DNA from: Poseidonia sp.
GTDB taxonomy: Archaea; Thermoplasmatota; Poseidoniia; Poseidoniales; Poseidoniaceae
Direction of reading: 5' to 3'
Length of the DNA stretch: 64,000 nucleotides
Assembly: GCA_965661285.1 (NCBI GenBank)
Contig: CBFIDD010000001.1
Span: 256,001 to 320,000, forward strand
Below the pieces are notes generated by a model. That model made no database searches, was not told where the DNA came from, and worked only from the letters and a program-made list of their open reading frames with translations. Below are positions 35,607 through 55,601 of this stretch, one piece after another (positions within the stretch are counted from its first letter, which is position 1; the number at the start of each line of letters is the position of its first letter). The translations under genes were made by a program, and so were the position numbers.

Positions 35607-36377
35607 TCAGGCACCGCTTCGTTGGGTTTTACACCCAACACCCCAATCCGGCTCGGCCTCCATCGCCCTGCGTGTTTGTTCGAGAAGCACGTCCTCGGGC
35701 GTCGGTGAGGTAGGGGTTGCGGACGTGTACGCCAGCGATAAATGATAACCGCTTTCCGTCCAATATTGCAATTGGATTTTTGATTTTTCAATTGAAATTT
35801 GGTCGGTTTCATTCTCAATTGGAATTTCAATTTCCCGGGGGTTGAGGTGCATCCCTTGGCCCAGACATTTTTGCACCGCTTCCTTCCCCGTCCACAAACG
35901 GAAAACATGCTCCGGTGCTTTGCGAAGGCGCTCGAGTTCGCTGCCTTTGGCCATCATATCGAAGGCGTTCTCTGCGAGGGTTCGGTCAACGGGTTCTGCA
36001 TCAAGTCCCACCCGAAGAGCAGGGGGTGCGAGGGCGACAAACGCCATGCCGTCACTGTGAGAAATCGAAACATTCGGTAGCGGCGTTCGTCTCCAAACAC
36101 CTTGAATGAAATGGATGGAAGGTGCCCTGAACTCGTCCCTTCGTACTTCCAGCACCGAGAGGTCGCCCACGCCCCACCATTCGAGCGCCTCTCCCAAGAG
36201 GCGGCGGCCCGTCAAGTGTTCACAACGACGCTTTCCGGTGACGAACGTCTGAACCTCGCTCGCCTGTGCAAGAGGAACCTCCGCAAGGTTCCAGTCCCGC
36301 ACGGGCATGACAAACACCTCCACCTTTCCATCGGGAGGCGTGAGCCGTTGAATCCCCACGCCAGACCCCTCGCTCAT
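35607..36377 (-). CDS. Sfp-type 4'-phosphopantetheinyl transferase
   Basis: SISHS, VGLDAE, WTGKEAVQKCLGQG; ATGA overlap with the megasynthase stop. Confidence 0.92.
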   Translation of the reverse strand: MSEGSGVGIQRLTPPDGKVEVFVMPVRDWNLAEVPLAQASEVQTFVTGKRRCEHLTGRRLLGEALEWWGVGDLSVLEVRRDEFRAPSIHFIQGVWRRTPLPNVSISHSDGMAFVALAPPALRVGLDAEPVDRTLAENAFDMMAKGSELERLRKAPEHVFRLWTGKEAVQKCLGQGMHLNPREIEIPIENETDQISIEKSKIQLQYWTESGYHLSLAYTSATPTSPTPEDVLLEQTRRAMEAEPDWGVGCKTQRSGA

Positions 36378-39300
36378 CGCTCCAGTGAAAACCGTTGGTT
36401 GTCATCAACCGTAGCCATGGCTTTGAGTTGCAACCCTTTGAGGGCCAACACAGGAGCATCGTCCTCACCGACGATAACAACGTCGTGAACGGTGATGCCA
36501 TCACCCGGGGCGCCAACTTGGAGGCTTCGCAACCGAAGCGTTTCATCAGCATCGGGAACCCTCAGCATGGTCGACCAGGCGATACCCACGGGAAGGCTGC
36601 TGTAGCCAAGCAGTTCCATGGCCACGAGGCCTGCGTTCTGGAAGCCAGCTTCGATCAGCATCGGGAGCGCTTCGAGCAACACCTGCTCACCGTCAGATTC
36701 CAAGGCAAACTGGTCTGTTTCGGGGAGTTGATGTCGCATCAACGCCAGCCCGTCAATACCTTGTCGGCCTTCATCACCAACGCCTCGAAGCACACCTCCG
36801 TGAGATTGGAAGCGTGGGCCGTGGAAGTACCGGTCGTAGATGAAGGAGGCGGGATGGAGCACATCGCCCGATGGAGGTGTGCCCGTTTCGGGTAATTCAT
36901 CGACTTCACCTTGCAAGAACGGCCGCAGGTCTTCGTGCTTCTCGATAAGACGAACAAGCGCCGAGTGGTGTTCTCGCTCGCCGAACACTTCGCCCTTTGA
37001 GTTGGCCAAATCTGACACCAAACGACAACGCACCCATGTAAGGTCGCCTTCGGAGCGTTCGATATTGACCTCAACACGAACCGTCATCGGGCCTTTCAGA
37101 AGTTTGACGGGCAGCCCAAAGCTGACCTCTTCAAAACCAGCTAAACATGTGGTGGGGAGGAGAAGCAGCGAGGATTGGGCAAACATTTCGAGGGCCATCA
37201 CGCCAGGGTGGTAAGGGACGCCCTCAATGGCATGGTCGGTCAAGAAAGGATGGTCCTCCTCCGAAAGGGTGGTCTGGGTGACCATGTGCTGGTGTTCTTC
37301 CAAGGCCACGACCTTGTCGACGAACGGGAACCGTGTGGGGTCAGCGATGGTGGCGGCCATGCTCGGAGGCAACTTCAGCGGTGCTTCTCGGAACGAATCA
37401 AAGCGGTCCATCACGCCCAGCGTACCGCACCCAAGCACCCTGCGTTTTCCACCCTGAAGGGCTTCGGCAACGAAGAGGGCCACGCCGTCCTCAACGGCGA
37501 GCGTCTCAATACCTGCAGCAGCGAAGACCGCTTCAATGGAGCCTCGGGTGGCCATGCCAACATCGCGCCAACCCGTCCAACCGATGGCCACCGCCCTGCA
37601 GGCCGTGGTCGCCGTCAGGCGTGCCATTTCAGCATCCAGGACCGAGTTGGCGGCAGCGTAGTCTGTTTGTCCGCCGTTTCCAAACCGACCGGCCACGCTG
37701 GTGAAACAGCAAGCGAAGTCGGGAACGTCCCGTCCCGAAGCCTGAACGGCCGACATCAAAGCCCGCCAACCGTCAATCTTCACCCGAACAACCCGATCGA
37801 ACACCTCGTAGGCTTTGTCGGCAACGAGCTTTGAGTCTTCCAAACCTGCGCCGTGAACGATTCCGGTGATGGGGCGTCCAAGCGACGCCCCAAGTTGTGC
37901 AAGGCCTTCGTGGTCCATCACGTCGATGGAGTGGTAGGTAGCCTGATTGCCGGTTTGAACGATGGCGTCCAGCGTGAGATAGACATCGCGACTGCGAGTA
38001 AAGCGTTGCCACGCAGTATTCCATTCCACCATGGTGACCTTTCCGGTTTCACTGGCCTCGATGAGGCGCTCACGCAGGGCGTTCTTCTCCTCAGCGAGTT
38101 GGTCTTCGGTCCAGCCAATCCAATCGGCGGTCGATTCGATAAGGGTTGAGCGACCAAGCAACTCGAAGTGCGCTCCGGCCTTTGGACTCGCTTGAGCGAC
38201 GCCGATGATGGACGCAGCCGTCACACCAGAGCCACCGCCGGACACCAACCACGTATCTTCGGCTGTCAACGGTTGGACCTCCTCCACAACGTCCTCTGCG
38301 AAAGCGACCAGCGACCAGCGGCGTCCGTCTCGGTCAAGACCAATCTCGACTTCTCCCGCAAGACCGAGCAGGTCCTTTTCGATGCGCTGTGCAGCATCGT
38401 CGGCCTCCAAAACAAAGTCAGGATGAAGGTCCAGCGCACGACAACGAAGGTCGGGACGCTCGAAGGCATACGACTTCGTGATGCCGCTGGCGGCACATTG
38501 GATCGCATTGAAGCGGTCGCCCTTGTTTCCGTGCCGTCCGTCGAGAGAAGAAACAGAGGCGATAAAGCCGGAGGAATCAGTTGGGATGCTCTGGCCCAAT
38601 TCCTTGAGAAGGCCAAACCAGCCCTGGGCTGCGAGCGCGATTTGAGAGGATGGATAGGTGTCTTCGGACCACTGCTCTGATGCGAGTTTCATCGGCGCCA
38701 TGTGAACCAGGCCTGCAAGGCGAACGCCGGCGAGTTGGGTTGCAATCCAAGCCAAATGCTCGGGTTGTTCGGGGTCGGCTCGGAACACGGTGCGACCGGC
38801 TTCTTCCTGACGAGATGCATCGCGAATGCGGCTCTCAAAGCCAATGCGAACAGCGCTCAAACCTCGCGCCTCCATGCGCTGACAAAAGGCTTCAGCGATG
38901 CCCCAGCCGTCGTCAGACACGACCACCGTGCCTTCGGGATGCAGCGGAGCGGCCACACCCGGACATCCTTCTATTTCCACTTGCCATCGGCGAGGACCCT
39001 CTGCGTGGGTCGAGGACGAGACGGGGGCAGAGATTTCGGCCACCTCATCAGCAACCTCAACCTCAGGTGCCTTTGGCGTCGGGCTTCCGCCCTGCATCTT
39101 CACGATGTAGGCGGTGAAGTGGTTCAGCGTCGGATGGTCTGCGAGCACAAAGTCTTCGTCAACGGGCAGCGAGAAGCGGTCCCTGATTTCGGCCATGATC
39201 TCGGCTTGTTTGACCGTATCAATGCCCAGTTCACCCTCGAGATCCTGGTCCAATTCGATGAAATCCGCTGGGTAGCCTGTGTGGTCGACGACGACCGAAA

Positions 39301-42300
39301 CGAGCACACCTTCGATTTCGGGGTGCGATTGGTTGGCCGCTGTGGAAGGCGATGGTGCGGTGGGCGCAGGCGTCGGGGCGGGCGTTGCGGGGGCTGGTGC
39401 TGGAGGAGTGGCTCTAGTCGCTGTTTGAGCGGCAGCACCGCCCTGCATGCGCTGGATGTAGCCAATCATGTGATTCAGTGTCGGGTGGTCGGCCAGGACG
39501 AAGTCCTCGTCAACGGGCAGACTGAATTTGTCGCGAATATCAGCCATGATTTCGGCTTGCTTGACGGTATCAATACCCAATTCGCCCTCGAGGTCCTGGT
39601 CGAGTTCAATGAAATCAGCGGGGTAGCCCGTGTGATCAACGACCACGGCGACGACCGTGGCGGTCATCTCGGCATCGTCAAGCGGAGCGGCAGGAGCAGA
39701 AGCTGCGGGGGCTGATGCTGGAGCTTGAGCCGAAACGGGTTCGGGGACGGCCAGTGCAGCGACTTCTGCGGGGGTTGATGGTGCGGGCTCGCCACTCGTC
39801 ATGCGTTGAATGTAGCCGATCATATGGTTGAGGGTGGGGTAGTCGGCGAGCACGAAATCCTCGTCGATGGGGAGTCCAAACCTGTCGCGTATGTCAGCCA
39901 TAATTTCGGCTTGCTTCACCGTATCAATGCCCAATTCGCCCTCAAGGTCTTGGTCGAGTTCAACAAAGTCAGCCGGATATCCGGTGTGGTTGACCACCAC
40001 GTCGATCACGGTGGCGACCATGTTCTCGTCGTTCACGACAGTTGGGGCAGCAGCGGGTACAGCGGGTGCAGCGGGTGCTGCAGGAGCGAGCGAGGATTCC
40101 ACCGGCGCGGCCGTTGGTGCTGGTTCCGGCTTCGGGGAAGGCTGCATTGGTTGAGGGGTGGACACTGAGGGCTTGCCCTCCCACGGTGCTGTGTACGGCC
40201 ATGGCTCGCCTTGGATGCCACCGTGGAGGTTGTTCTCTCCGTCGACATATGCCACGAGTTTGTTCTGGAGAACCCGCATGACCACATCGTCCGTGCCCGC
40301 AAGTCCTCTGGCCCAAGCGAGTAAGCGAGCACCGTCGATACGCTCGCCTTCCACTGGCCATCTTCGCATCAACGACAAAGCGATTTGTGAACCAAAGCCA
40401 GCTGCAAAGCGCAAACCGTATTCCAATTCGGGATAGTCGCCTCCGGTGGAAAGGTTGAGGTCGCCCAATTCAGGGTCCTTTTCCTTGTGGTTGGCGATGG
40501 GGGGAATGCGTCGTGTCTTCAGGCCGTAGAACATGCTGGCATCTTCGATACCAACCGCCATCGGATGGCCGGTGAAGCCTTTCGTATTGGCAATCACCAA
40601 TTTGTTGGTCGATTCACCAAAGGTGTCGCGCAGCGCCTTGACCTCGGATTGGGCCGAACCGCCACGGGCCGGCGTGTAGGTTTCGTGGGAGAAGAAGACC
40701 GTGTTCGGGGCCATGGCGTGTCGGTCAAGCCCCCAGCGTCGCTCCATATCGGTGATGAAGCTGTTGACCACCTGGCCCACGTGCTCCACATCCAAGCGCG
40801 TGCCGTGGTAGGCAGAATTGGCGGTGGTGGAACCGAGGAACTCAGCGATGGGTTGCACGCCACGCTGTTGGGCCTCTGAGTTGCGCTCCACGACAAAGGC
40901 GGCTGCACCCATGCCCAAAATGAGCCCGTTTCGACGGCGATCAAAGGGCAGGGCGGTTTCTTCGACGACGTTGTTGGTCGCTGCGGCACCCGAGGCGGCA
41001 AAGCCGCCAGCGATCCACTCCCAAAGGTCGTCGCCCGTCACATCGTCACCGCTGATGATGACCACGCGGTCAACCCGGCCGGCGTCAAGCCAGTCCTCTG
41101 CAACACCAAAAGCAGCGGTTGCTGAGGCACATGCGAGGTTGATGGTGGTGTTTGGTCCTCGAATACCGGTGTATTGTGCGAACTGAGAATGGCCCATGTT
41201 CAGCGTTTGGAACAGGTAGCGTCGGTCGAACCGACCCTCACCGTCATCGCCGTTGGTCTTGGCGTGTTTGGACGCCATCTGAAGGCCGGGGAAACAGGAT
41301 GAGAAGACGATGCCCGTGCGCTCTCGTTGGATTTGAGGCACCTGCCAGTTGCGAATCAGGCGGAGTCCACCCTTTCCGATTTGTTCAACCGGCGTCAGCG
41401 GAATACCTGCGTCTCGCAGCGCCAGCAAACCAGCAGCCACCGCCAGTTGGGTACTGATATCCCACGCCACGATGGCTTTCGGGTCAATACCAAATTCTTC
41501 GGCGAGGTCAAAGGCACCCTTCAGCCCTGCAAGCTGAGGGATGTCACCAAACACGGTGGCTTGGTCCATGTTGACCGAGCCATCTCTGCCCTTGATGAGG
41601 CGAACGATGTTTTTGTCCAAGAGACGCTGCTTGTATTCGTCCGAAACTTCGCTGATGCAGGTCTCGCCTCGAACCAGTTTCTCAAAGGCGTCTTCCGAGA
41701 AGACCCGGTCCATACCGGGCAAACCGAGCGAAACACCGGTGACCACGTACGGGTCAGCATCCCGCCTCGTGCCCTGTTGAAGCATCGAGACGGTGGAGAC
41801 CGGCGCCACCTTGAGATTGGAGGGGGCTGAAACCGAGGTCATCGGCGACCAGGAGGAGGGCGGTGTGCGAACCCAGCGAGCGAGGTCTCCAGCCGTTTGG
41901 GCGGCGGTCCCATCAAACTCAGGGTCGATTTCTGCCTCCGAAGCGATGGTGGCCACGACCCGTTGGACTTCGTCGGCGGTGAGGCCCAAACCCGCTGTGA
42001 GCGATACCTGGCCGTGACAAAAGGAGGCAGGATAGCCGCTGTGAGCCGCGATTCGGTCGCCGACATAGGCCCTGATGGCGCGGTCGAGTGCAAACTGTGA
42101 ATCCATCGGGCCGGTATGGACGGTCGCTGCTGGTGCGACTGGGGTCGGGCTTGCCCCACTTCCAGGCAACGGTCGTGCCCGGGTGCGCAGGGATTCCTGT
42201 GCGGCACTGGAGGATGAGGAGGAGAGAGGAGCAGCCTGGCGGGCTTCAAGCGGTCCCGCCTTGAAAGCGTCCTGGAGCGCATCCGAATCAAGCGAAGGCC

Positions 42301-45205
42301 AAGATGGAGGGCGACCGGCGAGCGCCAAGGCACCAAGAGCCGTCATGAAACTCGCAATACCGCCCTGTTTTGGATGGTTGGTCATGATGGGCACGTGAGG
42401 CTGACCCTCGAGGATTTGCATAGCAAACATGGTCAACGCACGCTTTGGACCGACCTCAACAAACAAGCGTCCGCCGGCAGCGTACATGGTTTCGATCTGC
42501 TTGGTCCATTCTACCGAGGAAGCCATTTGCGGAGCGAGTTTCTCCAAAATGGCCGTCTTGGCGTCGTCGCCTTTGTCGGGATAGAACGTGCCGTCGACAT
42601 TGGCGGTGATGGGGACCTCAGGCCAGCGGATTTCCAAGCCCTCCAAGAACCGGCGAAGCGGTTCGTTTGCTGGGGCTACGATTCGAGAGTGGAAGGCGTG
42701 TGAGGTCGCCAAGGCAACGCAGGAGAACCCTTGCGCCTCAAACATCTCCATGGCGGCCTTGACGGGTTCGGTTTCTCCGGCAATGACCGTCATCTTGGGC
42801 GAGTTTTTGTTGGCCGCGATCACATACCCCTCGGTCGCTTCAAGCACCGCCTCGACCGCCTCATAGGGCGCGGTTACGCTGGCCATCAAGCCCTTGTCGT
42901 CGATTTCAACGGCGCCCATTTCCGTTCCGCGCGCTGCGGCGGCGCGCAGTGCTCCGTCCATATCCAAAATACCAGAGGACATGAGGGCGGCGTATTCACC
43001 CAACGAGTGGCCTGCGACCATGTCAGGTGAGTGCCCGTAGGTTTGGAGAGTCCGCTCAATCGCCAAGTCGGCGGTGAGCATCGCAGGTTGCGTGTATTCG
43101 GTCTGCTTGAGTTTGTGCTCTGCTTCTTTCAATTCATCCTTAGAGAGCGCCGAGCGCAAGACAAATCCTGAGAGGGTCTCGCCTCCCAGCACCTCAACCA
43201 TCGTTTCATCGGCCTGTTCCCAAACGGCTGCGGGGGCCGTGAAGCGTTGCACCAAATCGGCGGTCATCCCGACGTATTGACTCCCCTGCCCGGGGTACAT
43301 GTGAACGGTTTTTGCCTCGGCCGGCATGGCAGGCTGGTCGGTCAGCAACACACCTTGTGCCTGCAAGAAGCCCCACTTCTCGGCGTCCATCATGGCCTGG
43401 CTCGCCAGGGTTTGTCGCTTCGCAAATTCGGCCCAAGACGTCGCCACGAGTGCCATGCGAACCGCTTGATTGGAATCAAAGGCCGAACTCGCGGTTTGCA
43501 GCGCCTCAGAGAGTCGGCGACCCTTCGGGTCGTCATCGAACAAGGGGGCGTCAAACGAGACCTGAGTCAGCTGTGCATGAAGCGCCTCAAGGGAGTCATC
43601 GGAGAGCAGCAACACGCCGCCTTCAACGGCTTTGAGCGCCTCGTGCGACATGGTTGCAGGAATGGACGGGTCAAAAATCGAGGGAGCACTGACCTCCGCT
43701 TGCCCGCTGTAGGCCGTCCAACGGGCGTCCCAATCCGAAGCCAACGGCACGTGATAGTCGGGCTCATAGCCCTCGAGAGCGATGTGGAAGTTCGTGCCAC
43801 CAAAGCCGAACGCCGAAACACCTGCACGTCGAGGATGGCCTTCGGGCCGTGGCCATTCAAGCGGTGCCGTGGGAACAAAGAAGGGAATGTTGGACCAGTC
43901 CACCGTTGGATTGGGCGTCTCGAAATTCGCACTCGGAGGGATGGTTCGGTGGTGCAAAGCCATGACCGATTTCATAATGCCCGCAATGCCAGCAGCTGCC
44001 TTGAGGTGCCCAATTTGGGATTTGATGGAGCCAACGGCGACGTTGCCGCTCCCCTCAACGCCCGTCCACAACCTGGAGAGCGTGGAAAGTTCGGTTGCAT
44101 CACCAACCTTGGTCGACGTCCCGTGAGCTTCCACCAGTTCAACCGTCGATGCAGGGTAGCCTGCTTGGCTGTACGCTCGGGCAATGGCCTGAATTTGACC
44201 TCGCTGGCTCGGGGCCGTGATGCCTTTTCCTCGGCCATCAGAAGAGCCCCCAACCCCGCGTATCACGCTGTAGATTTCATCATCATCCCGAATGGCATCG
44301 CTCAGCCGCTTCAGCACCAGAACACCTGCACCCTCACCCATGACGAAGCCGTTGGCTCGGGCGTCAAAAGGCGACGAGTGGGAGGGCGAAAGGGCGCCGA
44401 TAGCCGAGAACTTCGCAAAGGTTGCAGGGTCCATGGTTCGGTCGGTTGCCCCTGCGAGCATGACGTCCACCTGGCGTGTTTGAAGCAGGCGACACGCATC
44501 GAGAACTGCAGCCATCGAGGAGGCGCATGCGGCGTCCATGGCGTGATTGGGCCCTTGCAAATCCAGCAGATTCGCGACACGTCCCGAAACCACGTTGGCC
44601 AGTTCACCGGGCATGGTGTCTTCATCCACCCGAGGCGTGCCCTCAAGAATCGCTTCGGCAAACTCGTCTGCTTTTCCTTCGGGCAGACCGTGTTGCTTCG
44701 CCACGTTCGTTGTGTGGTTGGACCACACGCGAATGTTCGACAAGTTGCGGTTTTCTCCACCAAGCGCATTGGCGAAGACGACCCCGGTTTTTGTTCGGTC
44801 AATGTCGCGTGAGTCCCCATCATAACCAGCGTGCTCGATGGCGTCTGCGGAAACGGAAACGGCCCACAACTGACACGGATCGATTTGCGGCAATGTTCCG
44901 GGTGGTTGACGCCACCTGCGCCAGTCAAACTCAGCATCGGAGACCAATGCGCCAATCTTGGCGTAGGTGTACCCTTCGGTGTGTTGCCCGGGGCCGCCCT
45001 CTTTCCAGAAATGGTTGATTGGACCGGGCCAACGCCCCTCTGGAAGCGGTCGGATGCTCACTTTGGCGTCGAGAATGTTTTGCCAAAACGCATTGATATC
45101 CGGCGCATCTGGCATGAGGGCGCCAAGACCGATGACGGCAATCGGCTCGAAGGGCCCCTGCTCGATCCCCTCGCATGGTTTGCCGTCTGCTGTCGTCAAC
45201 GTCAT
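36374..45205 (-). CDS. Type I PKS/FAS megasynthase (PfaA-related): KS-AT-pseudoACP-KS-ACP-ACP-ACP-KR-DH
   Basis: KS1 DAACASS/EAHGTST/GHLK; AT GQGSQ/GHSLG/HAFH; KS2 NLACAS/SHET/KGFTGH; three LGIDTVKQ ACPs; KR GGGSGV/YAAAN; DH H-x3-G-x4-P (DHAIEGVPYHP). Confidence 0.95.
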   Translation of the reverse strand: MTLTTADGKPCEGIEQGPFEPIAVIGLGALMPDAPDINAFWQNILDAKVSIRPLPEGRWPGPINHFWKEGGPGQHTEGYTYAKIGALVSDAEFDWRRWRQPPGTLPQIDPCQLWAVSVSADAIEHAGYDGDSRDIDRTKTGVVFANALGGENRNLSNIRVWSNHTTNVAKQHGLPEGKADEFAEAILEGTPRVDEDTMPGELANVVSGRVANLLDLQGPNHAMDAACASSMAAVLDACRLLQTRQVDVMLAGATDRTMDPATFAKFSAIGALSPSHSSPFDARANGFVMGEGAGVLVLKRLSDAIRDDDEIYSVIRGVGGSSDGRGKGITAPSQRGQIQAIARAYSQAGYPASTVELVEAHGTSTKVGDATELSTLSRLWTGVEGSGNVAVGSIKSQIGHLKAAAGIAGIMKSVMALHHRTIPPSANFETPNPTVDWSNIPFFVPTAPLEWPRPEGHPRRAGVSAFGFGGTNFHIALEGYEPDYHVPLASDWDARWTAYSGQAEVSAPSIFDPSIPATMSHEALKAVEGGVLLLSDDSLEALHAQLTQVSFDAPLFDDDPKGRRLSEALQTASSAFDSNQAVRMALVATSWAEFAKRQTLASQAMMDAEKWGFLQAQGVLLTDQPAMPAEAKTVHMYPGQGSQYVGMTADLVQRFTAPAAVWEQADETMVEVLGGETLSGFVLRSALSKDELKEAEHKLKQTEYTQPAMLTADLAIERTLQTYGHSPDMVAGHSLGEYAALMSSGILDMDGALRAAAARGTEMGAVEIDDKGLMASVTAPYEAVEAVLEATEGYVIAANKNSPKMTVIAGETEPVKAAMEMFEAQGFSCVALATSHAFHSRIVAPANEPLRRFLEGLEIRWPEVPITANVDGTFYPDKGDDAKTAILEKLAPQMASSVEWTKQIETMYAAGGRLFVEVGPKRALTMFAMQILEGQPHVPIMTNHPKQGGIASFMTALGALALAGRPPSWPSLDSDALQDAFKAGPLEARQAAPLSSSSSSAAQESLRTRARPLPGSGASPTPVAPAATVHTGPMDSQFALDRAIRAYVGDRIAAHSGYPASFCHGQVSLTAGLGLTADEVQRVVATIASEAEIDPEFDGTAAQTAGDLARWVRTPPSSWSPMTSVSAPSNLKVAPVSTVSMLQQGTRRDADPYVVTGVSLGLPGMDRVFSEDAFEKLVRGETCISEVSDEYKQRLLDKNIVRLIKGRDGSVNMDQATVFGDIPQLAGLKGAFDLAEEFGIDPKAIVAWDISTQLAVAAGLLALRDAGIPLTPVEQIGKGGLRLIRNWQVPQIQRERTGIVFSSCFPGLQMASKHAKTNGDDGEGRFDRRYLFQTLNMGHSQFAQYTGIRGPNTTINLACASATAAFGVAEDWLDAGRVDRVVIISGDDVTGDDLWEWIAGGFAASGAAATNNVVEETALPFDRRRNGLILGMGAAAFVVERNSEAQQRGVQPIAEFLGSTTANSAYHGTRLDVEHVGQVVNSFITDMERRWGLDRHAMAPNTVFFSHETYTPARGGSAQSEVKALRDTFGESTNKLVIANTKGFTGHPMAVGIEDASMFYGLKTRRIPPIANHKEKDPELGDLNLSTGGDYPELEYGLRFAAGFGSQIALSLMRRWPVEGERIDGARLLAWARGLAGTDDVVMRVLQNKLVAYVDGENNLHGGIQGEPWPYTAPWEGKPSVSTPQPMQPSPKPEPAPTAAPVESSLAPAAPAAPAVPAAAPTVVNDENMVATVIDVVVNHTGYPADFVELDQDLEGELGIDTVKQAEIMADIRDRFGLPIDEDFVLADYPTLNHMIGYIQRMTSGEPAPSTPAEVAALAVPEPVSAQAPASAPAASAPAAPLDDAEMTATVVAVVVDHTGYPADFIELDQDLEGELGIDTVKQAEIMADIRDKFSLPVDEDFVLADHPTLNHMIGYIQRMQGGAAAQTATRATPPAPAPATPAPTPAPTAPSPSTAANQSHPEIEGVLVSVVVDHTGYPADFIELDQDLEGELGIDTVKQAEIMAEIRDRFSLPVDEDFVLADHPTLNHFTAYIVKMQGGSPTPKAPEVEVADEVAEISAPVSSSTHAEGPRRWQVEIEGCPGVAAPLHPEGTVVVSDDGWGIAEAFCQRMEARGLSAVRIGFESRIRDASRQEEAGRTVFRADPEQPEHLAWIATQLAGVRLAGLVHMAPMKLASEQWSEDTYPSSQIALAAQGWFGLLKELGQSIPTDSSGFIASVSSLDGRHGNKGDRFNAIQCAASGITKSYAFERPDLRCRALDLHPDFVLEADDAAQRIEKDLLGLAGEVEIGLDRDGRRWSLVAFAEDVVEEVQPLTAEDTWLVSGGGSGVTAASIIGVAQASPKAGAHFELLGRSTLIESTADWIGWTEDQLAEEKNALRERLIEASETGKVTMVEWNTAWQRFTRSRDVYLTLDAIVQTGNQATYHSIDVMDHEGLAQLGASLGRPITGIVHGAGLEDSKLVADKAYEVFDRVVRVKIDGWRALMSAVQASGRDVPDFACCFTSVAGRFGNGGQTDYAAANSVLDAEMARLTATTACRAVAIGWTGWRDVGMATRGSIEAVFAAAGIETLAVEDGVALFVAEALQGGKRRVLGCGTLGVMDRFDSFREAPLKLPPSMAATIADPTRFPFVDKVVALEEHQHMVTQTTLSEEDHPFLTDHAIEGVPYHPGVMALEMFAQSSLLLLPTTCLAGFEEVSFGLPVKLLKGPMTVRVEVNIERSEGDLTWVRCRLVSDLANSKGEVFGEREHHSALVRLIEKHEDLRPFLQGEVDELPETGTPPSGDVLHPASFIYDRYFHGPRFQSHGGVLRGVGDEGRQGIDGLALMRHQLPETDQFALESDGEQVLLEALPMLIEAGFQNAGLVAMELLGYSSLPVGIAWSTMLRVPDADETLRLRSLQVGAPGDGITVHDVVIVGEDDAPVLALKGLQLKAMATVDDNQRFSLER
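39095..40025 (-). repeat. Three tandem near-identical ACP domains separated by Pro/Ala linkers
   Basis: HTGYPADFxELDQDLEGELGIDTVKQAEIM...DEDFVLADxPTLNH occurs three times. Confidence 0.92.
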
Positions 45206-45214
45206 GTGAACACC

Positions 45215-46006
45215 TCAATTCATGATGCTTTCCGGCACCATCGTGATGGAATAGCCCGCATCAACGTAAACGCATTGACCTGTGACGCCCGCTGAGAGTG
45301 GACTGGCAAGCCACAAGGTTGCACCGGCCACATCGGCCTGACTGACGTTTCTTCGGAGCGGTGCGTTCGCTTCAACGTGATCTAAAATTCGGTCAAATCC
45401 AGGTATGCCGCTGGCAGCGATGGTCCGTATGGGCCCGGAGGAAATGGCATTGACACGATGACCCTCTGGCCCGAGATGGCAGGCGAGTTCACGTGTCCAG
45501 CACTCCAAAGCCGCTTTTGCCATGGACATGATGCCGTAACTGGGAACGAATCGATTGGAAGCCGCATACGTCAGTGTGATGGTTGAGGAACCGGGATTGA
45601 GGTAGGGGAGGGCGTGCTTGAGGCAGCGCTGAAGCGAATTCGCCGAGATGGTCATGGCGGTGTTGATGTCGTCGTCTTCAACAAAAAGAATGGGCCGGTC
45701 AAAACACGAGCGAGGCGCAAACCCGATGGCGTGGACCAAGATGTCCGCCTTCTTACCGGGGTGGTCTGCGGCAAAGGCGGTGAAAAATTCCTGCGTGGTG
45801 CTGTCCGAAGCGACGTCGAGCGGATAGAAACCACCGATGGCGGGAAGTTCGTCCTTGAGTTTGAACACACGACTCATGAATCGCTTCTGGTACCCCAGAT
45901 AGAGCGTGACCCCAGCCGCTGCCAATTGCTTGCAAATCGCCCATGCAATGGAGTCTTCGCTTGCCACTCCAAACACAAAGGCCGTTTTTCCTTCCAGTCC
46001 AAGCAT
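45215..46006 (-). CDS. fabI: Enoyl-ACP reductase (NADH), FabI type
   Basis: GVASEDSIAW, HAIGFAP, YGIMSMAK, NAISSGPIRT, YVDAG; GAGGAGG SD. Confidence 0.92.
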   Translation of the reverse strand: MLGLEGKTAFVFGVASEDSIAWAICKQLAAAGVTLYLGYQKRFMSRVFKLKDELPAIGGFYPLDVASDSTTQEFFTAFAADHPGKKADILVHAIGFAPRSCFDRPILFVEDDDINTAMTISANSLQRCLKHALPYLNPGSSTITLTYAASNRFVPSYGIMSMAKAALECWTRELACHLGPEGHRVNAISSGPIRTIAASGIPGFDRILDHVEANAPLRRNVSQADVAGATLWLASPLSAGVTGQCVYVDAGYSITMVPESIMN

Positions 46007-46123: not shown

Positions 46124-47221
46124 TCAAAGGTCGGCGAAAACGTCGTCAAATTCGTCTTCTTCGTCCTCAGGGAACAAATCGTCCAGATCGGAGAGGTCCA
46201 AATCATCCAAGTCGTCATCCTCTGGCTCGTCCTCCACATCAACGGGAGGCACATACATCGGTTGAGCGTTGGCTCGTCGACGAATAGTTCGAGCCAAAGC
46301 CACAACAAAGATCAGGCCGAAAAGAACGGCAGCCCCGATGCTCCCGTACATCACGAGGGTGTCTTTGTCAACCTCTTCCAAGCCGCCGCCAAGTCCGCCA
46401 GCCGTGTTGCTGACCTCGAGTTGAATGGAGATGCTGGTCTCGCTCACGGGGGCTTCGCCATCGTTCTCACTTTCGGCTTGGAAAATAACCTGGAGCCGTT
46501 CCTCAGCGGCCACTTCCGAGGGCGCCCTGATGGTCAATTCGCGCACCGTTGAAACGCCGCCTTCGGTGACGTCTTCAGCCACGAACGTGCCGCTAGGGAA
46601 GGTGAAACCAGCCTGCTCAAGTTCGGCGGCATTGGTGATGGAAACACGAATCTTATCGTCGTCGTTACCGTTGTTTTGGAATTGGAACGTGATGGCGACT
46701 TCATCGCCCTGAGCCATGGTTCGTGTGCTCTTGTCAGAAATGTCAAGGTCCACCATACCAAAGGTCGCTACGTTGAGGTCGCCGTTCACCGTTGCGTTTG
46801 ACGAGAGCCCTTCCGGCCAGTCAAGCATCCCGACATTGGTGACCGTAGCGGTCAAGGTGAATTCGTAGGAGACCTCGGCTGAAAGGCGGGTTTGACCGTT
46901 GAAGGTGACTTTGAAATCTTCTTCTTCATCAGGACCGAGGTCAAAGGAATCCTCCTCCAACATCATGTCGACTTCAAGACCGTCCCACTCCTTTTCGACA
47001 GCGATGGTTTCTTGGAACGAGGAGGGGTTCCTGACGGTGCAGGTGATCTCCACCACGGGTTCACTGAGCGGATGAACATCGAGTTCGGGCTGTTTTTCGT
47101 CGCAGTCGATCTCAACGCCGGGCGCCGTGGGAGCTTGAGCTTGGACAGAGCCTGCGAGACTGCACAGCAAGAGCGCCACCACAACCCATCCAAAGCGGCG
47201 TGAAGCTAGCATGGCCCTCAT
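46124..47221 (-). CDS. Secreted Ig-like surface protein with C-terminal TM
   Basis: Signal peptide after ATG 47221; NNGNDDD motif; TM helix and acidic tail. Confidence 0.75.
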   Translation of the reverse strand: MRAMLASRRFGWVVVALLLCSLAGSVQAQAPTAPGVEIDCDEKQPELDVHPLSEPVVEITCTVRNPSSFQETIAVEKEWDGLEVDMMLEEDSFDLGPDEEEDFKVTFNGQTRLSAEVSYEFTLTATVTNVGMLDWPEGLSSNATVNGDLNVATFGMVDLDISDKSTRTMAQGDEVAITFQFQNNGNDDDKIRVSITNAAELEQAGFTFPSGTFVAEDVTEGGVSTVRELTIRAPSEVAAEERLQVIFQAESENDGEAPVSETSISIQLEVSNTAGGLGGGLEEVDKDTLVMYGSIGAAVLFGLIFVVALARTIRRRANAQPMYVPPVDVEDEPEDDDLDDLDLSDLDDLFPEDEEDEFDDVFADL

Positions 47222-47291
47222 GGTCCCCTGTGGTTTCTCTTTCATCAATGTGATGGGGTGTTGTCGGCAAAAATATGCGTTCATAAACACC

Positions 47292-48161
47292 TCATTCTTC
47301 TCCGTAGACAACGGCCGGCAGGACGCTGTGCGTGTTCCACATGACGTCTTCGTCAACGCCTGCAGCCAGCAATTGTTGGGTCCGTTTCGGCACGGTTTTG
47401 GGGCCCAGCACGGCACCGGGACGACGAGGGTCATCCATGTAATCGGTTTCGAGGAAAAACCCGTTTTTCGCCATGCGATGGGTTTCAACCAACCGTTCCA
47501 AAGCGCCTTTTCCGCACAACACGCTGGGCGTGAGGCCGTGGGTGTGTTCAGCACGAACATCGGGGGGAGAATAATGGCGCACCAGTTTTCTCAAATCCAT
47601 CCCTTGACGAAGCGCTCGACGAGACAAATCGCCGTAGGTGTCCTCTCGCTCGCCTTCCACGTGAAGTTGAAGTGGCAATCCCTCTTGAGCAGCAAGGTGC
47701 ATCGTTTCATCGAGAAGTTGGTTTGAAAGGTCCCAAATTTCGTCCGAAACAGGCCAATGAGGTCGCCCCACCTCGCCGATGGCGTGAGCCTGCCCCTCGT
47801 GGACAAACCCAAGGGCGGCTTCAATGGAATGGCGGTAATTCTCAATCGCACGCTCCTTTCCAGCATCCCCTTCGTTGGAGACCCAGCGCTCGAATTGATG
47901 GGCGAAGGCCGCAGGATGCGGGCCGAGAACGACACGTACGCCAAGGCCAACGTCCTCTCGTACCGACGCCGCCATCCGAATCGTGTCGGCGTAGGCGTTG
48001 CGATGGCCTTCAAAGGTCTCGGGAGGTGCGGAAAAATCAGGGCAGTGAACGAGCACGAGGTCGGTTCCGCCCACGCGCTGAAAAGAGCGTGCTGCATCAA
48101 GGAACAATCCCTTTCGGTTGAGGTGAAAGTGGTTGTCCAAAATCGGACCGTCATAGACCAT
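47292..48161 (-). CDS. TatD family hydrolase (archaeal type)
   Basis: DNHFH, GPHP, IGEVGRPH, QLH, ETDYMDDPRRPGAVLGPKTVP. Confidence 0.9.
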   Translation of the reverse strand: MVYDGPILDNHFHLNRKGLFLDAARSFQRVGGTDLVLVHCPDFSAPPETFEGHRNAYADTIRMAASVREDVGLGVRVVLGPHPAAFAHQFERWVSNEGDAGKERAIENYRHSIEAALGFVHEGQAHAIGEVGRPHWPVSDEIWDLSNQLLDETMHLAAQEGLPLQLHVEGEREDTYGDLSRRALRQGMDLRKLVRHYSPPDVRAEHTHGLTPSVLCGKGALERLVETHRMAKNGFFLETDYMDDPRRPGAVLGPKTVPKRTQQLLAAGVDEDVMWNTHSVLPAVVYGEE

Positions 48162-48170
48162 GGAGTTCCC

Positions 48171-48713
48171 TCAAATTCGGTCGACGAAATAGCCGTTATC
48201 GCTGAACACGCCGTTCCAGTAGACCGCCGCCATGGCCACCATGTTCGGATGACGGGCATCCGCCACGATGCACTTGCCGTTGGGCCAAATCTGAACGGTC
48301 AAGCTGTGTCGGGTGTCGGTCAACGTGGTGCAGCCGAGGCGAGCGTCAAACTCGGCGGCCCCTGAGGGCAGGCTGGCTGGAATGGCCTCCAAATTGAGGG
48401 CTCGGTCGAACTGAAACGACACGACGACGGGGCCCATCTCCGCAACAAGACCGCTGTCGTCCATGCCCATGCGGAGCAGGAGTTCCTTGGCAGCAGCACG
48501 AGCGGCTTCTACACGGTGCGTACCGTGGACAACAATCCTGCCTTCCTCATCGATCACGAGGGTGGCGCGAGGGCGTTCCATGGCTTTGATGACCACGCCG
48601 CTGTTGCGCTGGCCGCCGACTTCAGCGATGACGGTGTCGTGGTTGAGGGGAACAGGGCAGACAAAGCGAACGAGTTGGTTCTCCACGCGAACGTCGATGG
48701 AACCTGTGGCCAT
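48171..48713 (-). CDS. Divergent TATA-binding-protein-like protein
   Basis: 180 aa, two repeats: VEN...PRATLVIDEEGRIVVHG and LNLEAI...VQIWPNGKCIV. Confidence 0.65.
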   Translation of the reverse strand: MATGSIDVRVENQLVRFVCPVPLNHDTVIAEVGGQRNSGVVIKAMERPRATLVIDEEGRIVVHGTHRVEAARAAAKELLLRMGMDDSGLVAEMGPVVVSFQFDRALNLEAIPASLPSGAAEFDARLGCTTLTDTRHSLTVQIWPNGKCIVADARHPNMVAMAAVYWNGVFSDNGYFVDRI

Positions 48714-49527: not shown

Positions 49528-52500
49528 TCACTGGTTGTTGACCCAGTCTTGCAGCGACTCAACGGTCCACCCTTGGTCAAAGTAACCCTGGATTTCCTCC
49601 TGCGTCCACTGCGGGAAGGTTTGCATGGCGCGGGCCATTTCCGGATGAACATCAGCAGGAATCTCTGCGAGGACCTTGCTCTCCGTGTATCCGACATCGT
49701 CGTCATCTTCGTATTCATACTCGTCATCGAGCATGGACGCACCGCCACCACGGCGGGCAAGCACGAGAACAAGCGTGCCGAGGACACCGATAACGACCAC
49801 GAGAAGCACCACGATGAGCAACATGTTGCCCGAGTCTTCCTCGGCCTGAACCTTAACGTTGAACACGTCCGCCCATTGGGGTTGCGAACCATCGTAGATG
49901 TTCTCGCTGGTACCGTTGAGGCTGATGGTGTAGTACATGCCCGTGGTCTGGGTGGCGAATGGTGCGAGGGTCACTTCGACCCAATCACTCACTTCCTGGA
50001 TGCCCAGTTCGGGCGTTGCGACCGTGTCTTCCACAACAGGCGTTCCACCGTCGGTGACCGACTTGATGACCAACTCGGCAACGCCGGCCATCGAACCGGT
50101 GTTCTTGACCTTGATTCGCAGTTTCATGCTCTCGCCAACTCGCGGGTCTTCGCTGAGAAGAACGTCTTGAATCTCAAATGTCGCCTTTTCTTCGATGAAG
50201 GTGTACTGTGACTCATGCTGGGCTTGTGCCGTCGAGATGATAGGAAGGATGGACCCGCCCTCTTGAGGTCCTCCACCGAATCGAACGGTCGAACCGGCAG
50301 AGTCAGCGCCGGACACCCAGAACACGAGCGTGGGCTGCTGCGTTTCGTCCACTTCGGCATCGAACACACGTGGTTCACTGTCGGAGAGCGGCCAAAGGTC
50401 CAAGCAGGTGGCCGTTGCGAGATAGCCGCCGTCCAAGGTGCTGAGCGAGAGGGTTTCGGAAGAGGGTTCGAATCCGAAATACTCGGCGTATTCGGACCAT
50501 GGCGTGTAGTCGATGGTGTTGCTGTAGAACATCCAGTTGACCTGGAGGTCGCCGGGGAAGATGGCTTCCTGCTCTTTGATTTGCAATTGAATGTCCACGC
50601 AGTGGTAGTTGGCGGTTGACAACGTGTTGGCGATGATGCGGCCATCTGCACCTGCTGGCAGGGCTCCCTTCTCAGCAAGCCATGTGTTGGACAACACTTC
50701 CGGAGGCGTTCGGTCGACCTTCAACGTGAACTCGCCGCATCCATAGGAGGTCGAGGTAGCACAAAGCGAAGATGTGACATCCACTGCACCGTTTGGCAGA
50801 CTGTAATCTTCTTCAGCATCACATGAATCAGCTTCATCGCTTGGCGGACACAACCTGTAGGTGTACTGATATTCATTGGTGAACACAGGGGCCGTTATGT
50901 TGATGTCGAAAACACCGCCTGAGAAGGTGTGGTAAATGGTCTCACCGGGATACTGGATGTAGCCCTTGCTGCTGTCATCCAAGGCGTCAAGGCGAATGAT
51001 TTCCATGGTCATTTCAATTTCTGGGTTGATGTAGACGCTGTTGTAGATTCCATCTCGGAATGCATACTGACCAGTGAATCGAATTGTATCTCCTGCGTAG
51101 ACGAATCCTTGCCGGACATCGCTGGTGAACGGTTCACTCGCGTCTTCAAACATCGGCGTAACCATGAGGTTGTTGACCTCGTCCGTTCTGAAATCAAGTT
51201 GCATGATATCGGCATAACGCCAAATTTGGATGTAGCGTCCCGGCACACCAGAAAGCATCGTGTAGAGCGGGTTGTCAAGGTCCTGCATCTGCAATTTGGG
51301 TTCGATGTCCTTGCCGTCCATACCGACAATCCCCCAATCGATGCGAATAGGGATGTTGAGGATGAAGTCCGACTCAAACGGGTCGATGAGGGCCGTGCCG
51401 TCCATGGTGAGCATGGTTGGACCCACATCACCGTCGTAAACAATGTCCATGTGTGGGCTGTCTGTCCAGGCCGTCTGATTTCGTGGTGAGTACCAAATCG
51501 TCATGTCGTCTGCTGTTTTATCGAGGTTAAGCTGGAAGAAATCTACGTCTCGCCAACCGTTGTCATCGCTGGCCTCCAAAATCAGGTGGTAGACGTTTCC
51601 GGCATACATGGTCTGGTTCCACGTTCCGTCCCATCGCAATTCGTTGGCGTTCAGGAACGGATTGCCTTTCGAATCCTCGATGAAGAAGTTGCGAATCACC
51701 GGATTCTTTGACGACATGGATACATACGAGACTCGGTCGTTGTCAAATCCGGGTCCACCACCGTCGATGGTGTTCCCTGCGAGATCGTAGCCTTCAATCC
51801 AAATTGAGACCTTGCCTTCGAGTCCTTCGTTTGCAATGTCGTTGTATTGACCGGTGTAGTTGGCCGTTGGTACCTCGCCATCGCCGTTCAACGTGATGAT
51901 GGTGTATTCATTCGCATCGGGGAGACCGTCGCCGTTAGCGTCGTGGTCGTTTTCAACCCAAAGGTGCATGTCCAAGGTTGCGGGTGGGTTTGGTATGTCC
52001 TGACTGGACATTCGAATTTGTTGCGCACTGTTTGGCACGACCCATGTATCATCGAGAAGAGTTCTCCAGTTTGAATCAACATTGGGGTCCGTCCCCGCAC
52101 TCAACACCTGGAGGTCAAGGAGGTTGGGCTCGTAGGTATCGATCATGACGTCAAAGGGGATGGCACACGTCTCGTCAGGGTTGTAAATTGAGGGCGGGCA
52201 GAGCAAATCACCGTCTTCATAACCTCGAAGGGCAAATCGGTAGGTCTCGCTACCAGCTGCGGTACCAAGGTCGACATTCCAGTTGAAATTGCCACCAATC
52301 ACACCCGAGCGATTCGCCACCTCTTCCCATTCCACTGTGATGTTGCCGTCGGTGGTGTTGACATGCTTCAGCTCGAGAACGAGGAAGTAGGAGGTAGGGT
52401 CGGGAGAAACGGTGAGGTCTTCAAGCCGAATTTCACCGACGAGGTTGATTTGTCTTCCAGATTGGGCACCTGTCAGGGCTTGAGGCTGACCAATGCCGTT

Positions 52501-55470: not shown

Positions 55471-55601
55471 GGTGTCACCTGCACCTGTGCGAAGGTTTGC
55501 CCCCATAAAATCTCGTCGCTTTCCCGATACCGTACCGTATTCCTCTTCCTTTGCTTACTGTTGTGAACATGAGTTATGAGGGTGGACCTTGTGGAACGAG
55601 C

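Follow-up and report, generated by a model that had tools for sequence, protein, structure and literature searches.

Threonine in place of the attachment serine in the acyl carrier domains of a PfaA-like synthase from a Marine Group II archaeon

The ACP (acyl carrier protein) domains in a PfaA-like synthase encoded in a 64,000-nucleotide stretch of a Poseidonia genome (contig CBFIDD010000001.1; the whole stretch is called the window below) carry threonine where serine normally holds the 4'-phosphopantetheine arm. The source genome (1.98 Mb, 8 contigs, 93% complete) belongs to Marine Group II (Poseidoniales), and the synthase gene (P0001, 2943 aa, frame intact) lies in an operon between a gene for a FabI-like enoyl-ACP reductase and a gene for an Sfp-type 4'-phosphopantetheinyl transferase (PPTase). 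Based on comparative sequence analysis, we consider it likely that the threonine hydroxyl carries the phosphopantetheine arm and that the arm is installed by the co-inherited PPTase. By alignment, the threonine is homologous to the attachment serine and conserved in the family; serine and threonine have been exchanged among orthologues, and by gene content the ACP domains and the PPTase pair exclusively with each other in these genomes. Judged from its distribution, the threonine is not a local oddity but the hallmark of a large family, Type R, that has been catalogued and is uncharacterised.

All three ACP domains read LGIDTVKQ, each threonine lying within ELGIDTVKQAEIMA, and Thr1762, Thr1880 and Thr1997, encoded on the minus strand by ACG, ACC and ACG (positions in Table 1), agree to the base with an earlier sequence-only reading of the window. 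With PF00550 the synthase scores 93.2 bits (cut-off 20.8), in three stretches (E 1.2e-26), and 38-39 bits per domain in the genome search. Where PF00550 has a conserved serine, in (D/H)S(L/I) at the start of helix II, all three domains have threonine, and by phmmer this residue aligns on the serine of the D-S motif in the solved ACPs PigH (5y08) and AcpM (1klp, 7bvc). Each ACP core contains one or two serines, none of them at a position common to the three copies; the only loop serine in ACP2 and ACP3 is glycine in ACP1. Around the threonine, synonymous sites vary between ACP1, ACP2 and ACP3 (TTG/TTG/CTG, GGC/GGT/GGC, GTG/GTC/GTC and AAG/AAG/AAA).

Four independent runs of marine metagenome sequencing supply contigs over the ACP region, and among the 40 differences from the window that were examined (of 47) none falls on a threonine codon. 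Parts of the stretch are without cover in run X7 and give no evidence either way. The sequence-only reading had held that a single sequencing error could not account for the threonines; the synonymous differences between the copies, the agreement of the four runs and the conservation of the residue throughout the family bear this out, and because of that family-wide conservation chance or error can be excluded. In three of the four runs, a 35-base contig piece over the ACP3 DNA for DTVKQAEI (39192-39226) has a depth of 57-390, compared with 5-30 nearby. The DNA of this motif seems to be common nearly letter for letter to many organisms in those samples.

A further ACP-like domain, residues 1016-1115, is not called by Pfam. 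Iterated jackhmmer searches started from it converge on true ACP domains and align its GLTAD with GIDSI. The acceptor site holds alanine here, proline in the metagenome protein P0217 and histidine in the Poseidoniales genome G004, and by this alignment the segment is an illustration of what a decayed acceptor site looks like. Because alanine stands at the serine position, residues 1016-1115 do not form a hidden Ser-type ACP. The earlier statement that no Ser-type ACP is visible in the operon thus stands, and it can be widened: besides the three threonine domains (Thr-ACPs), the whole 1.98-Mb genome has no PF00550 match.

In order to survey the family, the ACP region was used in a word-seeded search, in which 3145 of the 8000 proteins scored reached E <= 1e-3. 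In 118 of the 120 matches listed, every ACP has threonine (475 of 475 domains), always followed by valine. The remaining two, P0008 and P0093, are thraustochytrid PfaA proteins with LGIDSIKRV, in agreement with the serine that the sequence-only reading had given for PfaA. Since a word-seeded search favours the motif, an unseeded HMMER search with one ACP domain was run against 1.84 billion cluster representatives, yielding 4859 matches at E <= 1e-3. The best 150 of these 4859 comprise 92 proteins with threonine throughout, 57 with serine throughout and one combining threonine with one alanine domain; the serine proteins fall mostly into two further clades, one with LGIDSIKRV (the PfaA type) and one with LGIDSIKKA. 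The residue after the acceptor co-varies with it, valine following threonine in 351 of 359 domains and isoleucine following serine in 267 of 274 in the unbiased set. This pairing looks volume-compensating and may be a steric compensation for the methyl group of threonine.

A pattern scan of one genome per prokaryote species gave at least 600 matches, of which 522 were confirmed, and 80 bacterial loci were kept. These cover about 10 phyla (Acidobacteriota, Myxococcota, Chloroflexota, Gemmatimonadota, Elusimicrobiota, Leptospiraceae, Bacteroidota, Rhodothermales, Actinomycetota and Burkholderiales) and include a metagenome-assembled genome (MAG) of Elusimicrobium minutum (L072) that shares both the ACP motif and the PPTase. 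Threonine occupies all 279 ACP motifs of the bacterial loci, with the codons ACA (12), ACC (136), ACG (117) and ACT (14). Of the 88 loci in which the motif occurs (90 scanned: L001-L080, L099-L107 and the window), not one mixes serine and threonine, and no truly mixed protein occurs among the 120 matches listed or the best 150. With all four threonine codons in use, the residue is, on this comparison, invariant under purifying selection. A survey of Thr-ACPs with their neighbouring PPTases had been proposed together with the original observation; it finds the threonine throughout the family, and the residue, being a hallmark of Type R, is not peculiar to this operon.

Closer to the window, we compared the ACP regions of 18 Poseidoniales genomes, and nine whole operons with that of the window. 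The order FabI-synthase is kept in 10 of 10 operons and the PPTase gene follows in nine, the tenth (G059) ending at the contig end. At another locus, L107 (G002:C4:46000-65999), two overlapping frames (1981 and 969 aa) take the place of the single synthase frame, through either a frameshift or faulty assembly. The threonine form LGIDTVKQAEIM is found in family f1 (4 of 4 fetched), in family f2 (G001) and in the genera of family f3 other than the three named next; G004, also of family f2, reads LGIDTVRQ. Those three f3 genera are represented by four genomes (G015, G009, G059 and G061), which carry LGIDSIKQAEIM (DSIKQ) with the codons TCA and TCG. Because some Poseidoniales genera thus have the same operon with serine, the two residues have been exchanged at least once among orthologues; their codons (ACN and TCN) are one base apart. 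An exchange between exactly two hydroxyl residues, with nothing else tolerated, is what is expected of a site where the hydroxyl does the work. The metagenome protein P0217, which is 46-48% identical to P0001 over the whole length, has LGVDSVKQA in both of its ACPs.

A maximum-likelihood tree of the KR-DH part, with the ACP columns excluded (41 rows, 862 columns, quick search), places the Poseidoniales in one clade (100%) with three serine genomes nested within it (100%), and joins P0217 to Thr-type sequences at 97%. The bacterial threonine clade and the archaeal clade fall into one 99% group, within a tree whose backbone is not resolved and whose rows do not include the reference Type R strains. 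A Fitch count on this tree gives five Ser/Thr changes, two of them within the archaeal clade. A 3234-aa relative, P0227 (MCY3414055.1, from a MAG of Candidatus Heimdallarchaeota archaeon), has five Ser-type ACPs with LGIDSVKVA; its position in the tree, on a long branch joined to an Elusimicrobium protein, is unreliable.

The PPTase is, by its profile matches and catalytic motifs, an ordinary Sfp-type enzyme. A single-sequence search of the PDB gave a weak match (E 0.17); the family profile reached E 1.9e-19 with Sfp (4mrt, 1qr0) and 1.4e-17 with human AASDHPPT (2cg5), and the motifs GxDxE and WxxKEA align on GIDIE and WSMKES of Sfp, so that both the family and the catalytic residues are recognised. 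In an alignment of 27 cluster PPTases (six archaeal Thr-linked, three archaeal Ser-linked and 18 bacterial), R50, G124, D126, W162, E166 and K170 are invariant. Of the 80 bacterial loci, 64 have a PPTase homologue downstream, on the strand of the synthase; loci cut by contig ends make up 14 of the 16 misses, and L024 and L052 are full-length loci without such a homologue. Five of the bacterial hosts also hold AcpS-sized PPTases and stand-alone ACPs, and in the E. minutum MAG, for instance, four Thr-ACPs occur together with one AcpP-like ACP and two PPTases.

In the source genome, PF01648 matches nothing but the coupled PPTase. Real ketosynthase domains are confined to the synthase, the only other KS matches being two weak, thiolase-like ones, and three carboxyltransferase and three PlsC-type acyltransferase matches were found elsewhere. 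Among 81 Poseidoniales genomes, 54 have a PF00550 match and 53 a PF01648 match; 51 have both, 25 neither, three only the ACP (G078, G009 and G059) and two only the PPTase (G017 and G029), counts that are not independent because the genomes are kin. G009 does have a PPTase by phmmer, and both G017 and G029 are fragmented assemblies. A genome never has more than one PPTase match, which lies about 3-4 kb from the ACP matches where both are on one contig. All PF00550 matches sit in frames of 1071-3058 aa, and no stand-alone ACP was seen among those of the 81 genomes. Since the Thr-ACPs are the sole PF00550 matches and there is no stand-alone ACP, the Thr-type archaea keep a conserved PPTase that has no recognisable substrate except the Thr-ACPs. 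All five genera without the synthase are also without the PPTase; theirs are the smallest genomes (1.2-1.6 Mb). Synthase and PPTase occur together in 39 of 39 sampled f1 genomes, in addition to that of the window, and in 12 of 39 f3 genomes.

Several observations weigh against a threonine-linked arm with a PPTase of its own. The S36T variant of Escherichia coli ACP was reported not to be modifiable by 4'-phosphopantetheine, not to be acylatable and not to complement an acpP deletion, in the parts of the source consulted (PMC3340395); therefore at least an AcpS-type enzyme rejects threonine. The pattern used to find the bacterial loci contained DTVKQAE, so that each locus has threonine in at least one ACP by construction. 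No residue in the PPTase alignment separates Thr-linked from Ser-linked enzymes, the latter being three sequences from one clade. Finally, a single archaeal serine clade is not rejected by the approximately unbiased (AU) test (p = 0.218), which leaves the direction and number of the switches unsettled; therefore only the one or more switches stated above are claimed.

That threonine is phosphopantetheinylated by a PPTase with nothing special about it, Sfp-type enzymes generally accepting threonine here and the residue being a near-neutral or mildly advantageous variant, is an explanation that we hold to be somewhat doubtful. It agrees with the ordinary Sfp motifs and the lack of a Thr-specific residue in the aligned PPTases, and with a Ser/Thr exchange inside one archaeal order that left the operon structure unchanged. 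A generally tolerant enzyme, however, sits poorly with the absence of proteins mixing the two residues from the 88 loci, the 120 matches listed and the best 150, and the invariance of threonine over very deep divergence argues for constraint rather than neutrality. The Thr-linked PPTases are also more conserved relative to the synthase, with PPTase/synthase identity ratios of 0.51-0.72 for Thr-type pairs and 0.39-0.56 for the serine clade, a weak hint that comes from one serine clade. The loss of function in E. coli S36T likewise speaks against it, although the enzyme concerned there is AcpS and not of the Sfp type.

It is improbable, in our judgement, that the Thr-ACPs stay unmodified and serve as structural or docking repeats, with substrates bound to CoA or otherwise and the PPTase in another role. 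The canonical serine is indeed missing, threonine is a standard 'dead' change in E. coli ACP, and fatty-acid synthesis in archaea is generally regarded as independent of ACP. Against this, the whole DTVKQAE motif of helix II is invariant across phyla despite synonymous turnover, Ser-bearing orthologues occur within the same clade, a PPTase whose catalytic residues are intact is retained almost only alongside the synthase, and the truly degenerate domain shows alanine, proline or histidine at its acceptor site. Attachment of the arm to another residue, or of a different group, with threonine as a mere neighbour, appears very improbable: the three ACP cores have no further hydroxyl residue in common, and the lysine of DTVK is equally present in the Ser-type ACPs of PfaA (DSIK). 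The chance that we are dealing with a sequencing or assembly artefact or a decaying pseudogene is negligible, given the different codons of the copies, the intact reading frame, the agreeing metagenome contigs and the same residue in hundreds of homologues.

We thus favour phosphopantetheinylation of threonine by the coupled PPTase, as the sequence-only reading had suggested; the homology of the site, its invariance, the Ser-bearing orthologues, the intact PPTase and the exclusive pairing all argue for it. Two of the terms used there need narrowing. Calling the PPTase 'dedicated' is justified by its co-occurrence with the synthase and not by any Thr-specific adaptation, as none was found, and the chemistry would be 'non-canonical' in the anchoring residue only, the thioester chemistry being unchanged. 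In the mechanism envisaged, the PPTase would transfer 4'-phosphopantetheine from CoA to the threonine hydroxyl at the N-terminus of helix II, giving O-(pantetheine-4'-phosphoryl)threonine. The synthase would then work as a PfaA-type enzyme in which the acyltransferase (AT) domain loads malonyl units, both ketosynthase (KS) domains, KS1 and KS2, condense, and the ketoreductase (KR), the dehydratase (DH) and the trans-acting FabI carry out reduction; the product is probably a saturated or mono-unsaturated acyl chain. Threonine might serve to insulate the carrier from the housekeeping enzymes AcpS and AcpH, or might form a more stable phosphodiester.

In a wider and more tentative form, which we hold with slightly more doubt than confidence, O-(4'-phosphopantetheinyl)threonine would be a natural, undescribed modification and the obligatory anchor across Type R, in about ten bacterial phyla and Marine Group II, installed by the co-inherited Sfp-type PPTase, with DTV in place of DSI making the carrier orthogonal to AcpS, AcpH and AcpP. 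Such orthogonality would explain the constant association of the PPTase with the synthase. It would also explain why reversion to serine is seen only in archaea, because these have no other carrier system.

To our knowledge, the acceptors described for Sfp-type PPTases are all serines, and the lists of known protein modifications that we know of have no threonine entry. In the main texts of open-access papers and preprints, neither phosphopantetheine linked to threonine nor the DTVKQ motif nor tandem ACPs with threonine turned up; a search of the open-access literature and preprints likewise gave no paper on a synthase of this kind in Poseidoniales or Marine Group II, and none that follows up Type R. 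Serine is treated as the universal acceptor of fatty-acid, polyketide and non-ribosomal peptide carriers, and motifs, annotation and the 'dead' Ser-to-Thr or Ser-to-Ala controls depend on that. If the favoured reading is true, it would add a new post-translational linkage, and the acceptor specificity of PPTases would be wider than assumed or could be re-tuned, possibly offering an orthogonal carrier/PPTase pair for engineering. Motif-based tools may then be calling Thr-ACP domains inactive wrongly. Marine Group II has no carrier-dependent acyl-chain machinery other than this synthase, whose activity therefore bears on whether fatty acids are made by these abundant archaea. Type R also has bacterial hosts in culture: Elusimicrobium minutum Pei191, Roseiflexus castenholzii, Ca. 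Koribacter versatilis and Ca. Solibacter usitatus.

The operon is best read, from its domain content, as encoding a bacterial-type, carrier-dependent iterative fatty-acyl or polyketide synthase in a Marine Group II archaeon (Table 1). Named relatives of the synthase come from 'Candidatus Poseidoniales', 'Poseidoniaceae' and 'Poseidonia' archaea. The active-site motifs of KS1 and AT are present and the PPTase gene is translationally coupled to that of the synthase, in line with the sequence-only reading. KS2 retains its Cys-His-His set (LACASAT at 1357, SHETYT at 1506 and GFTGHP at 1543). Because the active-site cysteine is kept, KS2 is not a classical chain-length factor (CLF), the name used by Shulse and Allen, and it may be a working ketosynthase. 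A tally of this active site across the family was unreliable, the pattern missing 50 of 119 proteins, and was not used. Against TIGR02813 (PfaA) the synthase scores 868.6 bits, under the curated cut-off of 1010.1, and the FabI-like gene scores at best 220.2 bits against the NCBIfam FabI models, under the equivalog cut-off of 391; this gene is syntenic at nine other Poseidoniales loci.

The operon is closely preceded, on its own strand, by a gene for a 478-aa 'choice-of-anchor T' family protein (46124-47560, minus strand; NF041740, 117 bits). An open reading frame (ORF) with a TATA-binding-protein domain (48171-48713, minus strand; PF00352, E 6.9e-10) and a 1992-aa ORF without a Pfam match (49528-55506, minus strand), upstream of the operon and also on its strand, were observed as well. 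The TATA-binding-protein domain is itself a sign of the archaeal origin of the window.

Table 1. Features of the FabI-synthase-PPTase operon; coordinates are positions in the window.
Feature	Position	Strand	Basis
FabI-like enoyl-ACP reductase, first operon gene	45215..46006	-	Pfam adh_short_C2, 233.6 bits
PfaA-like iterative synthase: KS1, AT, degenerate ACP, KS2, three ACPs, KR, DH	36374..45205	-	Pfam domains, TIGR02813, active-site motifs
KS1, residues 20-430	43916..45148	-	PF00109 and PF02801; Cys-His-His motifs DAACASS at 224, EAHGTST at 359, GHLKAAAG at 399
Acyltransferase, residues 634-933	42407..43306	-	PF00698, 128.7 bits; GHSLGE at 732
Degenerate ACP-like domain, residues 1016-1115, Ala at Ser position	41861..42160	-	Iterated jackhmmer
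KS2, N-terminal ketoacyl-synthase domain	40871..41746	-	Second PF00109 match, G000:C1:296871-297746; motifs
ACP1, Thr1762, codon ACG 39920-39922	39809..40009	-	PF00550 match
ACP2, Thr1880, codon ACC 39566-39568	39455..39658	-	PF00550 match
ACP3, Thr1997, codon ACG 39215-39217	39104..39304	-	PF00550 match
Ketoreductase, residues 2410-2548	37562..37978	-	PF08659, 82.7 bits
PKS-type dehydratase, N-terminal part, residues 2627-2717	37055..37327	-	PF21089, 37.7 bits; HxxxGxxxxP as HAIEGVPYHP at 2658
Sfp-type 4'-phosphopantetheinyl transferase	35607..36377	-	PF01648, 41 bits (cut-off 25); start overlaps synthase stop as ATGA

Among known systems, PfaA (TIGR02813) shares with the synthase the tandem ACPs with LGID-x-[IV]K, the KS-AT part before them, the KR-DH part after them and an Sfp-type PPTase partner. 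It differs by its serine (LGIDSIKRV), whereas the synthase described here adds the internal KS2 and scores under the PfaA cut-off. No partner like PfaB, PfaC or PfaD was seen, the only KS domains of the genome being those of the synthase; PfaD itself was not searched for. The PPTase resembles Sfp-type enzymes in being two-lobed, in its size of about 230-260 aa and in keeping GxDxE and W(S/T)xKEA, and differs in that the sole acceptor available to it is threonine. The substitution that abolishes function in E. coli ACP S36T is here the conserved wild-type state of a family.

The closest likeness is to the Type R secondary lipid synthases, described as having one pfaA homologue with the domain order KS-MAT-CLF-ACP(3-6)-KR followed by a PPTase gene, with Koribacter, Solibacter, Elusimicrobium minutum and Roseiflexus among the hosts and a product that was not known (Shulse and Allen 2011, PLoS One 6:e20146, PMC3098273, consulted in part). 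The main text of that paper, as far as consulted, names no archaeal member and does not use the word threonine. Further differences are that FabI is a separate upstream gene in the present operon and that the second KS retains its active-site cysteine. Otherwise the synthase has the Type R layout, KS-MAT-CLF/KS-ACP(3-6)-KR with three ACPs, and the PPTase gene lies directly downstream. The Type R PPTase was described as being of the hShxH (P1b') type, which reads VSISH here, and the Type R hosts, including Elusimicrobium minutum, Acidobacteria and Chloroflexi, belong to phyla that are also represented among the present bacterial loci (PMC3098273, in the parts consulted).

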